Source: Eledone cirrhosa
Taxonomy: Eukaryota
Assembly: GCA_964016885.1 (NCBI GenBank)
Contig: OZ024754.1
Span: 7,998,001 to 8,062,000, forward strand
Direction of reading: 5' to 3'
DNA length: 64,000 nucleotides
The position numbers and the translations under genes were made by a program. The notes beneath the pieces are model-generated. The model had not been told where the DNA came from. It ran no database searches and was given only the letters and a program-made list of their open reading frames with translations. Below, one piece after another: positions 1,613 to 57,672 of this stretch. Position 1 is the stretch's first letter. Each line of letters begins with the position of its first letter.

Positions 1613-1891
1613 AGGATAACATGGTATCGTTTAAGGTAATCCAGCTAGAGGCTGGAAGTACTGTGTTGAGGATAAATTTAACGTACGGCGTTGTTTGACT
1701 CAACAAGAAGTTCCCTTAGTCAGGTGGCCAGTTTAAGAGAGTTCCTAGGCAAACATTGTAATTAAGTCGAGTGACGTAATTTCTAACGATCAGCGGCTTT
1801 TAGACTAACCTGATTAATGAAACAACTGTTAATACTGTAAATAAACCCTTTTTGTACAGCCGACCATGTTATTCTTCATTCTTTTACTATA
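1613..1891. mobile_element. (TA)n-inserted element, family Q (PLE-like architecture)
   Basis: Flanked by (TA)n; homologous to 15075-15540; GAAACAA(C/T)TGTTA resembles a helix III but no canonical CUGANGA plus helix II. Confidence 0.55.
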
Positions 1892-1899
1892 TATATATA

Positions 1900-2154
1900 T
1901 AAGATCAAAAGATGGTTAAAAGAGTTCCATGTATTTTATTATGCGCATTTCAAAAACAAATATCATTATGCAATAATATTTGTGTTTTCATCAGATAAAA
2001 TAGGAAGACATGATATGAAGGTTGAAGAACACTTGTGAATAATGCAGTTTTAAATCAACATATATATTATGTATACTCCAGTCCTACAAATTGTAGTGCT
2101 TCTTATCCGATATCTGCATTGCTTTATTGTACTACAATAAAACTCACCTCCTAC
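1900..2154. mobile_element. PLE-like pLTR remnant, family A (inverted HHR arm plus tail)
   Basis: Minus strand TATTTTAT-CTGATGA-helixII-GAAATGCGCATA-ATAAAATA; + strand tail matches 48874-48960. Confidence 0.8.
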
Positions 2155-2285
2155 ATATATATATATATATATATATATATATATATATAATTATATATAT
2201 ATATAATTATATATATAATTATATATATATATAATATTATTCAGAATATTAATAAATGAAGACATTCACATAATCAAAATATATG

Positions 2286-2347
2286 TTTTATTATATATAT
2301 TTCTAAGGTACTGTGCTGTTTTTGCAGTACGTCCTCGTCAGATAAAA
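2286..2347 (-). ncRNA. Type I hammerhead ribozyme, family P
   Basis: TTTTAT CTGACGA ggacGTACTG..CAGTACctta GAAA TATATA TA ATAAAA; helix I and II pair; helix III palindrome ATATATAT. Confidence 0.7.
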
Positions 2348-2545
2348 TACATGTATTTTCAAACTGAAATTGATTGTCAAACTGAAATTTCTTTTTGTGT
2401 TTTTTTTATCTTTATACCTCATTATGAAGAGCCAGGAAATTTTTCCTTGAACTCATAAAATTACAGGGGATTAACGCGAGTCTATCTCCGTATTTTTCAT
2501 TTGATTATTTATATATATATATATATATATATATATATATATATA

Positions 2546-2740
2546 CGATATTAATATATGGAAACTATATTTATAAAACCATATTTATTTCATTATACAT
2601 ATTTCAGGGATACCACATTAAATTATGGTATGCCTTCATCAGACAAAATACAAAATACAAAAACTTGTCGAGTGCTTTATATCAGTTATAAAAATATTTA
2701 CTTGTTGTATCCCAACAACTTTAAATAGAACTTTTGCATA
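2546..2740. mobile_element. PLE-like remnant, family B (inverted HHR arm plus tail)
   Basis: Minus strand TATTTTGT CTGATGA..GAAA TATGTA TA ATGAAATA; homologous to 21448-21876 and 56973-57495. Confidence 0.75.
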
Positions 2741-2771
2741 TATATATATATATATATATATATATATATAT

Positions 2772-2860
2772 AACCAGGGAGTGTAACATGAAGTTAATGT
2801 AGGTTCACCCAGATGAGCACTCGATGTTTAGGTTCACATCAGTGGCGAGGTGTTAAGCCT
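2772..2860 (-). mobile_element. Family D tail fragment
   Basis: Reverse complement of 55480-55543; follows (TA)n. Confidence 0.6.
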
Positions 2861-2937
2861 TCGTCACGTTTATTATGTGTGTATGTGTGTTGTGTTGTGT
2901 TGCCTGTATATATACACACAGGCAACACAACACACAA

Positions 2938-3024
2938 TTGTGGTGAGGAACCAGATGGACCATAATGCACCAGAGTATTCAATACTTAGGGTAGTAGAGT
3001 GGGTAATATGAAAATGTATGACCC
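2938..3024 (-). mobile_element. Family C tail fragment
   Basis: GGAACCAGATGGACCATAATGCACCAGAGTATTCAATACTTAGGGTAGTAGAGTGGG shared with nine other copies. Confidence 0.7.
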
Positions 3025-3242
3025 ACCACATACACACACACACACACACGTACGTACGTGCGTGCGTGCGTGCGTGCGTGCGTGCGTGCGTGCGTGTGTA
3101 TGTGTGTGTGATCCTAATTCGCTATTTATTCTTTTGGTTTTTAAAGTAATTGATATATTAATAGCATTATCTCATAACCCAACATATCTACCACAAGATA
3201 GCAATATCGTGAAAGTAATAATAATACCTGCTCCATGCTACT

Positions 3243-54249: not shown

Positions 54250-54603
54250 GAGAGAGATGGAGGAGAGAGAGAGAGATGGAAGATGTATGGAGGAGAGAGA
54301 GAGATGGAAGATGTATGGAGGAGAGAGAGAGATGGAAGATGTATGGAAAAGAGAGAGAGATGGAAGATGTATGGAAAAGAGAGAGAGATGGAAGATGTAT
54401 GGAAAAGAGAGAGAGATGGAAGATGTATGGAAAAGAGAGAGAGATGGAAGATATATGGAAGAGAGAGAGAGATGGAAGAGAGAGGGGGAGGGAGAGGGAC
54501 AGAGAGGGGGGAGGGAGGAGAGAGGGAGAGAGAGGGGGAGGGAGAGGGGGAGAGGGGAGGAGAGAGGGAGAGAAAGATAGGGAAAGAGAGGGAGAAAGAG
54601 AGA
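54250..54603. repeat. Purine-rich minisatellite (GAGATGGAAGATGTATGGAAAAGAGA) and GA-rich tract
   Basis: Direct observation. Confidence 0.9.
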
Positions 54604-54844
54604 CCGTAAGATCTGATATCTAACACTGTTGTTCGTGAAGCAGTAAATACATTATTGATTTCCTAAAACTTAGAAAGCGTTCAAAGACTATTTTGAATCA
54701 GCGCTTTTCGAAGAGAACGTCAGATCTTCAAGCTAAGCAATCTTATTTCCGTAATTTTATGGATTCGGCTCAGCTTTATCGATTACTCTTAACATCTATG
54801 TGAACATAAAGGTCAATAGTGTTTGTTTATTGTTATTTTTATAC

Positions 54845-56148
54845 TATTTCCTGAGCTAAAAAAAAAAAAAAAAAATCTCTAATAAACCCAGTTATATATT
54901 TTTGTTCGTGTTAATGTTTACAAAGATTATGTATTATAGAACAATTTGCTTATTGAAATCGAGCATTGAGGTCCGGATCTAACAGGCAACGGTGTAAATG
55001 GATCAAAGAGATTCTAATCACTTAATAAACTAGAAGAGCAGGAAATTAGTTCACTTTCTTACTCTAGATAGCTTTATGTATATCAAAGAATACCGCTCAT
55101 ATATTCTTTAACAGACGGTAAAGAACGCACAATAGAAAGAACGCCACGATGTGGCCATATTGATTATATAAGAATAGTTATTTTATCATAGAGATATGTC
55201 AATTGCAACTTGTATCCAATAAACCACCAAAATCTAAACTATATTTCATGAGCAGCGCATTATATTTTATATACGGATTCTGCACACCCGCATATATATA
55301 TTGGAATGATAACAAGGACGATTGGTTACTCCATTACATTATAGAGTCGGGTAAGATTGATCCAGATCGAACCTTGAGCTGATCAGTGGCTAAACGCGCG
55401 TCACCTACCAATAAATGTAATGAAGGAGTAACCAATTGTCCTTGTTATCCTTCCTATATATTACACTCTGTATAGCTCTACACCTCAACACAGAAGTGAA
55501 CCTAAACATCGAGTGCTCTCCCGGGTGAACCTACAGTAACTCCATATATATATAATATATATATATATATATATATATATGCAGTAACTCCAGAGAGAGA
55601 GAGAGTTACTGTAAGTTCACCCGGGTGAGCATTTGATGTTTTGGTTCACTTCTGTGTTGAGGTTCGATCTGTATCGATCTTACCCGACTCTATAATGTAA
55701 TGAAGGGGTAACCAACCGTCCTTGTTATCCTTTCAATATATATATATATATATATATGCGGGTGTGCAGAATCCGTATATGAAATATAATGCGCTGCTCA
55801 TGAAATATAGTTTAGTTTTTGGTGGTTTATTGGATCCAAGTTGCAATTCACATATCTCCCTATGATCAAATAACTATTCTTATATAATCAATATGGCCAC
55901 ATCGTGGCGTTCTTTCTATTGTGCGTTCTTTATCGTCTGTTAAAGAATATCTGTAGCGGTATTGTTTGATATACATAAAGCTATCTAGAGTATGAAAGTG
56001 AACTAATTTCCTGCCCTTCTAGTTTATTAAGTGATTAGAATCTCTTTCATCCATTCACACCGTTGCCTGTTAGATCCGGATTCATTAACACGAACAAAAA
56101 TATATAACTGTATTTATTGGAGATTTTTTTTTTTTAGTTCAGGAAATA
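54845..56148. repeat. ~1.3-kb imperfect palindrome centred on (TA)n and containing family D elements
   Basis: 54845-55374 mirrors 55659-56148; 55484-55543 mirrors 55602-55663. Confidence 0.85.
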
Positions 56149-56237
56149 TATAGTGTGTGCGCGCGTGCTTGTTTTTTTTATAAAAATATATATAAATATA
56201 TTTTTATAAATAAATATATATATACATATATATATAT

Positions 56238-56644
56238 AAGGGAGGAGGTTATAGTTCACTTGAAGCATTGTGTAATGAGGTATAAACGTTTGAATATGTG
56301 TAATAAGGCCAAGACAATGCAGGTATGGACATAGAAAGAAGAATGCAATAGTGAAAGATATTGATGTGAATTCGTCTTTCACCTTGAATTTATTTAAATG
56401 TCCTTAATTTTCGAGATAATATCTCTTCTTCGGAGGGAAGTAAAGGTCTCAAACCAGCATCTTTAAGACGCTGGTTTGAGACCTTTACTTCCCTCCGAAG
56501 AAGAGATATTATCTCGAAAATTAAGGACATTTAAATAAATTCAAGGTGAAAGACGAATTCACATCAATATCTTTCACTATTGCATTCTTCTTTCTATGTC
56601 CATACCTGCATTGTCTTGGCCTTATTACACATATTCAAACGTTT
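56238..56644. mobile_element. PLE-like fold-back insertion, family M, with variant HHR in each arm
   Basis: 180-nt arms 56284-56463 and 56465-56644, one mismatch seen; CCT CCGAAGA a GAGAT att ATCTC GAAA AT TA AGG. Confidence 0.85.
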
Positions 56645-56699
56645 TTTTTTTTTTAATATATATATATATATATATATATATATATATATATATATATAT

Positions 56700-56965
56700 A
56701 TACGCATGGCTTAGTGGTTAGATCATTGAGCTTGCAATCGGAAGGTTGTGAGTTCAATTCTCGGACCGGATGATCTGTTGTTTCCTTGAGCAAGACACTT
56801 TATTTCACGTTGCTCCAGTTTACTCAGCTGTAAAAATGAGATGAAGAGGTACCGGCCTGCCCACCCTGCCAGTGGGATGGCGTTATCTTATGGCTAAAAC
56901 AGCACGACGTGCTGTGACCAGCGGCGCCGAATGGACGCCCGACAGCCTGGTCGGTCAAGGTGATA
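56700..56965 (+). mobile_element. tRNA-derived CORE-like SINE
   Basis: TGGCTTAGTGG A box, GAGTTCAATTCTC B box, CCTTGAGCAAGACACTTTATTTCAC. Confidence 0.8.
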
Positions 56966-56972
56966 TATATAT

Positions 56973-57495
56973 AATATTAATATTAATAAATGGAAGCTAT
57001 CTTTATAAAACCATATTTATTTTATTATATATATTTCAAGGGTACCAAAATATTGGTACCAACTCATCAGATAAAATACAAAAGTTGGTTGACAGATAGT
57101 GACATATTCAGACAAGATCTCAATGCTATGAGTTCTATTCAAATAGAAATCTATAGTTCTATTCAAATAGAACTCAAGAAGATCTTGTCTGAATATGTCA
57201 CTATCTGTAAACCAACTTTTCTATTTTATCTGATGAGGGCGTACTAAAATTTTGGCCGAGGTATTCCGTACTTCTCTGTACTGTTTCAGAAAGGACGGAT
57301 AAACATGCCAATCTATGTTTAGAATCCCGAGCAACGCCGGGTCATTCTGCTAGTATATAATAAAGTAAATATGGTTTTATGAAGATAGCTTCCATCTATT
57401 GATATTATACTCCAGAAGAAAACTGTTGAGTGCTTCTAATCTGTTTTAAATTAAATTTGTTGAATAATCAATAAATTAAATAACTCATTGCTTAT
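56973..57495. mobile_element. Family B inverted insertion; right HHR interrupted
   Basis: Intact HHR on minus strand 57018-57078; right arm broken by 57256-57353; tail with ACTC..GAGT. Confidence 0.8.
57256..57353 (+). mobile_element. Helitron 3'-end fragment
   Basis: Hairpin CCCG-AGCAACGC-CGGG, then TCATTCTG-CTAG|T. Confidence 0.65.
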
Positions 57496-57536
57496 ATATA
57501 TATATATATATATATATATATATATATATATATATA

Positions 57537-57672
57537 TGGGAAAATAGTCAAGACCCCCGACGGCTGAACTCCGGCCGTTTCGACAGCTAGGTCCGAAAGC
57601 TACTCTACTACCCTAGGTATCGAGTAATCTGGTGCGTTATGGTCCACCTGGTTTCTTACCACACTTTGTTTT
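57537..57672. mobile_element. Family C inverted insertion (truncated)
   Basis: Short (-) arm joined to (+) tail. Confidence 0.75.

Follow-up and report, generated by a model that had tools for sequence, protein, structure and literature searches.

Short hammerhead-bearing inserts in (TA)n of Eledone cirrhosa: links to Penelope-like elements and pairing of two fixed 3' ends

What has repeatedly inserted into the (TA)n of this locus, and with what machinery? A first-pass annotation of the 64,000-nucleotide stretch analysed here (the window) had claimed about 30 short (TA)n-bounded inserts in about 15 families, most of them two-armed and hammerhead-bearing, and had read them as a diverse radiation of Penelope-like elements (PLEs) or retrozymes mobilised in trans.

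Inserts of the window and their (TA)n context

Using self-BLAST and family mapping, we found 47 inserts covering 11,811 bp (18%) of the window, so the reported inserts exist, and the number of families rises to 24 (the family letters are our own and differ from those of the annotation). Inverted two-armed inserts account for 24 of the 47, about half rather than most, the remainder being single arms or tail fragments. The predicted tail of 45-150 nt was recovered as the distance between two 3' ends, S1 and S2, of about 45-165 nt in ten families; a 310-nt unit described below has a tail of about 32 nt. The inserts, in window coordinates and with strand where one applies, are as follows.

1614..1887, X, Hydra-linked: inverted tail arm, S2 left, and sense arm, S1 right; arms without overlap
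1902..2154, B, Hydra: minus arm with full hammerhead 1994-1940 and S1 end; plus arm is tail only, S2 end
2234..2509, minus, D, C-related subfamily: one arm; hammerhead core at 2341
2546..2737, C, Hydra-linked: minus arm with hammerhead 2642-2594 (S1) and tail arm (S2); arms without overlap
2776..2853, minus, V: tail fragment
2936..3024, minus, A: tail fragment
6191..6422, A, two-armed: S2 left, S1 right; mutated U3:A8-type core
6486..6645, F, two-armed: stem II of hammerhead similar to that of the 310-nt retrozyme
6711..7326, G, retrozyme insert: S2 left, S1 right; hammerhead 7011-6981 (minus); internal (TA)22
9816..10086, plus, Z2, fragment: 665-nt hammerhead unit without ORF in locus L258
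10163..10354, A, two-armed: S2/S1
10371..10528, H, Hydra-linked, two-armed
11808..11927, minus, A: single arm
12208..12564, minus, B, single arm: S1 end; hammerhead 12301-12247
12583..12640, minus, L, Hydra: fragment
15081..15537, X, two-armed: S2/S1
19400..19734, I, two-armed: one hammerhead per arm (19595 minus, 19648 plus); no ORF link found
19840..20086, minus, Z1, fragment: 631-nt hammerhead unit without ORF in L269
21448..21875, C, two-armed: S1/S2; hammerhead 21546-21497 (minus)
30331..30629, plus, J, pLTR end: linked to L092-type PLE frame
30630..30815, minus, K, pLTR end: 3'-to-3' with J
30837..30916, plus, L, fragment: S1 end; non-canonical core
30942..31181, plus, M, Neptune-linked: minimal hammerhead at 31058
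31207..31374, A, two-armed: S2/S1
35594..35738, N, fragment: inverted copies at other loci
35771..35967, O: related to the 310-nt tandem retrozyme (80% across 80 nt, tail region)
41601..41794, A, two-armed: S1/S2
44104..44461, P, Neptune pLTR: S1/S2; U3:A8 hammerhead core
44476..44599, H, two-armed: core at 44520 (minus)
46840..46923, plus, A: old fragment without TA flanks
46992..47072, Q: fragment
47103..47355, plus, R: hammerhead core at 47134; no ORF link found
47375..47480, minus, S: U3:A8-type minimal hammerhead (by eye); inverted in L142
47632..48055, T, two-armed: 559-nt tandem without ORF in L095
48086..48961, B, two-armed, pLTR of a 799-aa Hydra ORF: arms 99% complementary; hammerheads 48184 (minus), 48773 (plus); S1 left, S2 right
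50597..50787, A, two-armed: S1/S2
50967..51154, minus, M, single arm: core at 51055
51187..51428, U, fragment: 603-nt tandem in L257; no canonical core seen
51468..51708, A, two-armed: S1/S2
51898..52460, plus, B, single arm: S1 end; hammerhead at 52347; 5' truncation point also at TA
53807..53922, plus, K: old fragment
55302..55543, V, two-armed: hammerhead-like junction, atypical core
55606..55735, V: rearranged second copy
56239..56644, W, Penelope/Poseidon-like pLTR: 99% arms; S2 left, S1 right; core U4>C
56974..57492, C, two-armed: carries internal insertion
57538..57673, A: S1 arm and tail-only arm
58409..58637, minus, Y, C-related subfamily: hammerhead 58553-58494

At least (TA)3 flanks 33 of the 47 inserts on both sides, against 2.5% of random intervals, a figure biased because many inserts were located by inspecting the gaps between TA runs. 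In a less biased test on the 30 best genomic copies of each of six families, 161 of 180 ends adjoin TA. Target-site duplications are unreadable inside (TA)n.

Links to PLE reading frames and hammerhead folds

As the annotation had stated, the window holds no PLE reading frame by tblastn. In longer genomic copies, 11 families (A, B, C/D, X, L, H, P, M, W, K and J) run on into PLE RT/GIY-YIG frames of Hydra, Neptune and Penelope/Poseidon-like types, which argues that the window inserts of these families are very short, 5'-truncated copies of autonomous PLEs and speaks against mobilisation in trans as a general claim. A link was counted when family copy and frame shared a strand with no TA run between them, which gave B 25/55, K 9/44, P 9/50, W 6/16, L 6/61, A 5/124, J 4/30, X 3/38, C 2/72, H 2/8 and M 2/54 loci. 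Chance adjacency also occurs (G 1/68, O 1/21, F 1/39; V 3/41, with different partners), so the links of C, H and M, at two loci each, are weaker; family I had none in 50 loci.

Family B has unbroken frames, among them a 799-aa Hydra ORF, and its best 40 genomic copies match the window insert at 97-100% identity. Loci L081-L083 show an inverted pLTR, a pLTR-tail, an 821-codon open frame and a pLTR; these loci, L061 and L087 have the pLTR-ORF-pLTR partial tandem with an inverted 5'-truncated copy and a tail at one end. This head-to-head arrangement with a one-end tail is shared with Neptune and Penelope/Poseidon PLEs (Arkhipova et al. 2013, PMC3846280; Craig 2021 Fig. 2 legend). Pfam identifies RVT_1 and GIY-YIG on the frames of L061 (family P) and L071 (family W), an RT with C-terminal endonuclease in one ORF. 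The family B frame has zero Pfam matches; its Atlas neighbours are HTH_animal/GIY-YIG/RVT_1 clusters, and its nearest database proteins are merely 30-40% identical. Across the genome, a first look gave 10,596 GIY-YIG candidates, 150 of which were scored.

The B and L frames carry RW(K), with T or R as third residue of the RWK motif in Hydra-type frames, DKT, a CxCX5C linker and CxxC plus CxH around E/N, without CCHH, in an ORF of <3 kb. These motifs would place B and L in the Hydra clade, and fragments suggest the same for A, C, X and H. Shared with Hydra-clade PLEs (Craig et al. 2021, PMC8557442) are a C-terminal endonuclease encoded within one ORF, the RW and DKT motifs, the CxCX5C linker, CxxC and CxH without CCHH, the pLTR hammerhead and (TA)n insertion. 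Unlike in that clade, several Hydra-type families co-occur here, tails are 80-165 nt rather than 30-40, stem III of family A is long and its core of the U3:A8 type, and family L lacks a canonical core. DKG, a CX2-5CxxC linker and a GIY-YIG with internal cysteines (L061 for P, the L282 translation for M) suggest that P and M are Neptune elements, whose published CX4CxxC linker and GIY-YIG (PMC3846280) they share; Nematis is a possible alternative, above all for K and J. A Naiad/Chlamys assignment was rejected, as it predicts an N-terminal endonuclease and no canonical hammerhead, and the linked frames have their endonuclease at the end.

Two other origins can be weighed here. That every family is non-autonomous and moved in trans, as first proposed, agrees with the ORF-less window, with G, O and probably Z1, Z2, T and U being ORF-less and with the missing link of I; against it stand the eleven families that extend into PLE frames and, for B, the unbroken frames and the near-identity of its best copies. 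As a general account it is very improbable, and for B, P, W, K, L and A it is refuted; the trans claim holds for G and the O/310-nt group. MITEs or other DNA-transposon derivatives targeting TA would also be short, with inverted arms and TA flanks, yet copies vary in arm length and in the position of the centre, an extra tail is present at one end, many inserts consist of a single 5'-truncated arm, and extension, the check proposed in the annotation, leads to RT/GIY-YIG frames and not to transposases. Fixed TIRs, constant length and a cognate transposase were not found, none of the latter occurring by eye among open frames of >=250 codons in L061-L100, and we give this origin almost no credence. 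We conclude that the inserts are almost certainly PLE-derived, and the first-pass picture of a diverse, (TA)n-associated, hammerhead-bearing PLE-type radiation with inverted, 5'-truncated, tailed copies is supported.

In the window our type I descriptor recovered 12 complete hammerhead folds, whereas 30 shuffles averaged 0.13 and never exceeded 2; the corresponding counts in 1.14 Mb (fetched loci plus window, overlapping loci counted twice) were 281 and 4. Family B supplies five of the 12, C and I two each, and G and Y one each; the last, at 58788, is not assigned to a family. The Rfam hammerhead families gave zero matches in the window at gathering score, and no hammerhead was among the best 150 of 386 matches in an E-value search, which weakens the claim of Rfam membership and not that of a hammerhead fold. 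On the coding strand, pLTR type I hammerheads were seen by descriptor or by eye in B, C, X, H, K, M, P and A; L, V and W have non-canonical cores. Most copies of A, the commonest family, are broken off within stem II and lack the first core box; its stem III is long, with a U3:A8 core. Folding energies of five isolated hammerhead stretches were unremarkable (z -1.35 to +0.14). The available part of the Schistosoma report (Cervera and de la Pena 2014, PMC4209133) describes, in another host and other PLE clades, similar minimal hammerheads: many families per genome, opposite-strand pairs 100-700 bp apart, the U3-A8 core variant, an unpaired base starting stem II and a palindromic stem III; an end-pairing analysis was not found in that part.

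Two fixed 3' ends and their pairing

Each tested family has two sharp 3' end peaks, S1 and S2, 30-165 nt apart and downstream of the hammerhead. Among 140 two-ended inserts of 11 families, 136 pair S1 with S2 (84 of 85 for unselected copies that had not been search seeds), whereas independent end choice predicts this in at most half; the rule-breakers were three S2/S2 and one S1/S1. Of 17 start sites, 11 show a median overlap of at least 3 nt between element and TA run, as do 6-20% of random positions; at the other 6 the overlap is short or ambiguous (e.g. 2 nt at B S2, 1 nt at C S1 and, relative to the reference used, 0 nt at G S2).

These data suggest that both target strands are cut by a PLE RT-endonuclease, with one cDNA primed at each fixed RNA site. 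We consider the model as a whole likely for stump and retrozyme inserts alike, and its priming step, at two sites on two strands, probable. The GIY-YIG nuclease would cut (TA)n on both strands, and each target 3' end would anneal by a few U/A bases to its own RNA start site. One cDNA would start at S2 and hence carry the tail, the other at S1; both would mostly halt after 50-400 nt and be joined head to head into a palindrome. Hammerhead cleavage appears unnecessary at the insertion step because inserts span the cleavage site, as it is dispensable for the Anolis Poseidon element PAc in vitro (Frangieh et al. 2024, PMC11167929). PAc likewise cuts and extends both strands, with two internal RT start sites bounding the tail. 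It differs in that no strand-dependent choice of start site was seen, where we see a different site per end, and in that no primer-template homology was found, where most sites here overlap the TA run by 3-7 nt.

Alternatively, a single S2-started cDNA could fold back and self-prime, with the endonuclease trimming one arm at S1, as in the earlier proposal of self-priming and EN resolution (Arkhipova 2013, Craig 2021). This accounts directly for the strict one-tail rule and for the 38 of 105 junctions that are near-perfect mirror images. However, the arms end at different 5' points in 67 of the 105, and in 47 the S1 arm is longer, with sequence missing from the S2 arm, which fold-back copying of an S2-primed cDNA cannot yield; the arms of 1614-1887, 1902-2154 and 2546-2737 do not overlap at all, and both tail ends were mapped to RT start sites in vitro (PMC11167929). 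We regard fold-back as unlikely, and priming at two sites as the better reading. Deletions at the centre of a palindrome after insertion could likewise leave arms of unequal length.

Inversions, tails, hammerheads and TA bias of PLEs are already published (Cervera 2014, Arkhipova 2013, Craig 2021), the tail being described as "optional" or "often at only one end" (PMC3846280; Craig 2021 Fig. 2 legend). Compared with those papers, S1/S2 pairing is counted here and is near-strict across clades, and the arms are apparently separate cDNAs. In the literature searched, this near-strict pairing and its occurrence on retrozymes are new.

ORF-less retrozyme units with the same layout

Family G is an ORF-less tandem hammerhead monomer whose unit measures about 430-540 nt across 18 fetched loci, of which some overlap; its longest stop-free frame is 84 aa, and it has no PLE protein match. 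The 310-nt relative of O is likewise an ORF-less tandem with one type I hammerhead per unit; its monomer has a rod-like predicted fold (z -4.3). Both groups close back on themselves without an ORF, and by this layout are putative non-LTR retrozymes; Z1, Z2, T and U, with a similar appearance at one locus each, are probably ORF-less units too. Metazoan non-LTR retrozymes (Cervera and de la Pena 2020, PMC7229834; Li et al. 2026, bioRxiv 10.64898/2026.07.22.740005) share the tandem arrangement of low-GC units that lack an ORF and measure a few hundred nt, the single type I hammerhead per unit and the self-paired monomer. They differ in that some units here are longer (430-665 nt) and that our arrays bear the PLE insertion layout of inversion, S1/S2 ends and TA target.

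Both 310-nt arrays are inverted with S1/S2 ends (9.5 + 3.9 units in L084, about 3 + 15 in L321), as are 24 of 26 two-armed G inserts with both ends called (one S1/S1 in L298; 12 of 38 G structures had an uncallable end). Divergence of G units is 0.34% inside an arm and 6.8% between loci, and that of 310-nt arrays is 0.06% between opposite arms and 0.42% between loci; one pair of opposite G arms, in L213, diverges by 3.6%. Local tandem amplification of a PLE stump by unequal crossover, satellite-like (discussed by Li et al. 2026), would also homogenise the units of an array. It is nevertheless improbable beside repeated RNA copying, since the arrays lie on many contigs, all inverted, in TA and with S1 and S2 ends, an identical unit variant occurs in both arms of one array, and the unit holds sequence past S2 that loops back to the hammerhead. 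Under repeated copying, the same PLE enzyme would circle the retrozyme template several times and leave inverted multimer arrays; the template, probably a circle from hammerhead cleavage and ligation, is a feature of the model that we favour by a narrow margin.

Neither the G nor the 310-nt unit resembles any of the tested autonomous pLTRs in sequence. Mobilisation of retrozymes by PLEs had been proposed from co-occurrence and phylogeny (PMC7229834; 10.64898/2026.07.22.740005). The layout of one long and one short end common to PLE stumps and retrozymes suggests that retrozymes are likely pasted into the genome by PLE enzymes.

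Inserts and hammerhead folds in the window

Mapping found 47 inserts, which fall into 24 families and add up to 11.8 kb, in this window of 33% GC from the 3.0-Gb assembly, and 24 of the 47 are two-armed, so the short TA-bounded inserts of the first-pass annotation are real. They are largely of known kinds, and the element classes themselves are known. A first look at the genome gave at least 1,473-4,268 candidates per family query, figures that are lower bounds and not copy numbers. At window 30331-30815, families J and K join 3' end to 3' end without an intervening TA run.

The annotation had also drawn type I hammerhead folds in many families and had named Rfam or a descriptor as the way to find them. 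The descriptor recovered 12 complete type I folds in the window versus 0.13 in shuffles. When 250 fetched loci were added to the window the counts were 281 versus 4, with loci that overlap entered twice. Rfam at its gathering score returned zero hammerheads in the window, and its E-value matches, among those listed, were microRNA-like noise out of simple repeats. Reading by eye added hammerhead cores in families D, H, J, K, M, P, R and S. Family A is mostly cut within stem II; its longer copies elsewhere in the genome carry a U3:A8 core in 16/17 cases, as do 17/19 copies of family P. Because copies decay neutrally once they are inserted, we relied on this double change from C3:G8 to U3:A8 and on the shuffles rather than on a comparison of cores with flanks. 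Passages of Cervera 2014 (PMC4209133) describe U3-A8 and hammerhead pairs on opposite strands. The folding energy of isolated hammerhead stretches was not unusual (z -1.35 to +0.14; five stretches).

The cores of three families are non-canonical:

Window 56430-56520, family W: hammerhead-like junction, core with U4>C
Window 55340-55410, family V: hammerhead-like junction, core with U4>C plus A6>U
Window 30846-30880, family L: hammerhead-like junction, U4>A, stem III pair missing

The same changes are present in the other copies read, and these junctions are possibly non-cleaving ribozyme relics. A separate hammerhead fold, whose stem II is 82 nt long (window 58788-58888, forward strand), lies outside any TA-bounded insert and had only two matches, both weak, among the loci compared with it.

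Insert stumps, which Rfam does not see, make up 18% of the window and could pass for MITEs or microRNA hairpins. Other repeats in the window are satellites, a SINE-like family and the 3' ends of LINEs, these last belonging to a frame which we take to be RTE-like:

Window 10685-11040, 15546-15963, 32978-33299: LINE-like frame, 3' ends 90-98% alike and adjoining TA/TAGA repeats
Window 4884-5395, 16021-16956, 31706-32365, 59383-59779 and others: SINE-like repeat, abundant, in some places as 196-bp tandem pairs and often within the same TA runs as inserts
Window 7328-9334, 24029-27125, 27570-28579, 39739-41003: long minisatellite arrays derived from TA, with periods of 36, about 2-110, 14-56 and 23
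Window 54830-55374 and 55660-56152: flank of about 460 bp, inverted duplicate (91-95%) around two family-V inserts, absent from the other fetched loci and apparently single-copy
Window 51750-51841, reverse strand: Rfam tRNA match (50 bits), anticodon UUU, 20-nt loop insertion, between TA runs; no tRNA call there by ARAGORN

Penelope-like reading frames joined to insert families

No reading frame of a Penelope-like element (PLE) was found within the window, in agreement with the first-pass annotation, which saw no RT or GIY-YIG ORF there. Its proposal to extend the families 5' proved productive, longer genomic copies reaching same-strand PLE frames for the families tabulated below. Window families near the top GIY-YIG loci are mostly separate inserts in a common TA run; mere proximity was therefore rejected as linkage. 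Scanning all 360 loci, we counted a link only where the insert ran on into a PLE frame on the same strand and with no TA run between them.

Table. Loci in which an insert family is continuous with a PLE frame, and type of frame.
Family B: 25/55, Hydra-type
Family K: 9/44, linker-bearing, not placed in one PLE clade
Family P: 9/50, Neptune-type
Family W: 6/16, linker-less, Penelope/Poseidon-like
Family L: 6/61, Hydra-type
Family A: 5/124, Hydra-type
Family J: 4/30, same linker-bearing frame as K
Family X: 3/38, Hydra-type
Family C: 2/72, Hydra-type
Family H: 2/8, Hydra-type
Family M: 2/54, Neptune-type

The family-B element is laid out in three fetched loci (L081-L083) as an inverted pLTR (the hammerhead-carrying PLE terminal repeat), a tailed pLTR, an unbroken reading frame of 799 aa, counted from its ATG, and then another pLTR. 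Its protein has the motifs RWT, DKT, YRDD, CxCX5C, CxxC-E and CxH and lacks CCHH, a set that matches the Hydra signature in Craig 2021 (PMC8557442), where the Hydra clade and its (TA)n bias are also described. Identity to its best 65 relatives in the database is 30-40%, and the sole informatively named neighbour is from Argonauta, which together with the repeat content of octopus genomes points to a host that is probably an octopod. Between RT and endonuclease the protein has an asparagine/proline-rich stretch (L081:5550-5850, residues about 600-680 of P0001) that resembles the N-rich inserts of rotifer Penelope noted in Arkhipova 2013 (PMC3846280). Pfam gave zero matches on the frames of B and of loci L087 and L092, and a PDB sequence search with the Neptune frame likewise gave zero.

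Links of families G, O, F and V to PLE frames were single or inconsistent and were judged chance neighbours. Across the 360 loci there was no PLE-frame link for I, T, Y, R, S, N, Q, U, Z1 or Z2, and 30 loci added for family I showed no ORF and, by eye, no tandem unit. Many Neptune-type copies (loci L031-L060) end in TA and have 3' regions of 600-700 nt in which no canonical hammerhead core was seen by eye; one Neptune-type subfamily (L060, L064) has a minimal hammerhead.

Paired 3' ends and the TA target

How PLEs produce inverted, tailed insertions is an open question in print. Passages of Craig 2021 describe inverted copies with a tail of 30-40 bp, often at one end; Arkhipova 2013 treats the tail as optional and proposes self-priming, and Frangieh 2024 (PMC11167929) reports two start sites in vitro. 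Every family that we tested has two sharp 3' ends abutting TA downstream of the hammerhead, S1 and S2, with the tail between them. One S1 and one S2 end were found in 136 of 140 two-ended inserts from 11 families, counting only inserts, de-duplicated by sequence, whose two ends each fall at a site next to a simple repeat; among copies not serving as search seeds the figure was 84/85. Families G, M, K, J, H, O and the 310-nt unit lie outside this count. Among 38 family-G inserts examined, 26 could be fully called and 24 of these paired S1 with S2; of the two exceptions, one consists of two neighbouring S1/S2 inserts fused by our script. The 310-nt arrays follow the rule in 2/2 cases.

The variable 5' truncation points are likewise flanked by TA, which indicates that TA is the target and not an encoded tail. 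Further, at 11 of the 17 start sites whose read-through sequence is known, the bases that continue the element agree with the TA run over a median of at least 3 nt (null 6-20%); this is not so at the other six.

These observations are most likely explained by a PLE protein that would nick both strands of (TA)n, each nicked 3' end priming through short UA microhomologies at one of two RNA sites, S1 on one strand and S2 on the other; both cDNAs would mostly stop early and then be joined head to head. The anatomy and the counts are observed, and from them we infer this cutting, priming and joining. The main rival is a single cDNA that folds back and is trimmed at S1, which accounts for the end rule. 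However, the 5' points of the two arms differ in 67/105 junctions, the further-reaching arm being S1 in 47 and S2 in 20, and longer S1 arms are left unexplained by trimming unless later deletions produced them. Some arm pairs have no common sequence at all.

Retrozyme arrays and their mobilisation

Also open in print is which reverse transcriptase, LINE or PLE, mobilises animal retrozymes, the ORF-less tandem hammerhead units. Cervera 2020 (PMC7229834) names both as candidates, and its main text contains neither 'inverted' nor 'microsatellite'. Craig 2021 suggests that PLEs may be exploited by retrozymes and describes non-autonomous, head-to-tail Chlamys elements, and Goubert 2022 (PMC8969392) that retrozymes may depend on PLEs. 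Li 2026 (bioRxiv 10.64898/2026.07.22.740005) makes its case from phylogeny, 'tail' occurring 0 times in the available portion, and Bonar 2026 (PMC13282606) lists, for Octopus vulgaris, 31 Penelope-like families with recent activity, ribozymes being unmentioned in the accessible sections.

In family G, sequence past the tail loops back to the same hammerhead, so that ORF-less monomers, each about 430-540 nt long, stand in tandem, with about 7 units at most. Window family O has a 310-nt relative represented by two loci, the genome search index skipping repeats of this kind and giving no match for the unit. This relative forms inverted, TA-bounded arrays with S1/S2 ends (L084:1329-5472 and L321:557-6454) of about 13 and 18 units that are 99.4-100% identical; these arrays are very recent. 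ORF-less loop-back units were also found at one locus each for Z1 (631 nt), Z2 (665), T (559) and U (603). Units are far more similar within arrays than between loci. The retrozyme units contained no stop-free frame above 84 aa and no PLE protein match, and had no useful similarity to the autonomous pLTRs tested. Four sequencing runs (kind unrecorded) compared with the G monomer contained its end-to-start joint in 4/4 and monomer-length single contigs in 2/4; tandem DNA yields the identical joint, so we rejected it as a sign of circular RNA.

We lean, if only slightly, towards animal retrozymes being SINE-like passengers of PLEs, whose enzyme would open (TA)n, prime at S1 and S2 through UA microhomology and roll round a putative hammerhead-made RNA circle to give inverted multimers; the partnership is suggested by the arrays' PLE-like layout. 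Our literature search, with supplements, subscription papers and Repbase/Dfam outside its scope, found no publication with end-pairing counts or the PLE layout on retrozyme arrays, and a near-strict two-site signature common to several PLE clades and retrozymes is a useful addition. The genome supplies a countable signature for both PLE insertion and retrozyme mobilisation, along with test material: a Hydra-clade element that is young and keeps its frame unbroken, start sites mapped in a dozen families, and retrozyme arrays that are nearly identical. If the proposal is true, one obligate two-site rule would span Hydra, Neptune and Poseidon-like elements and retrozymes.
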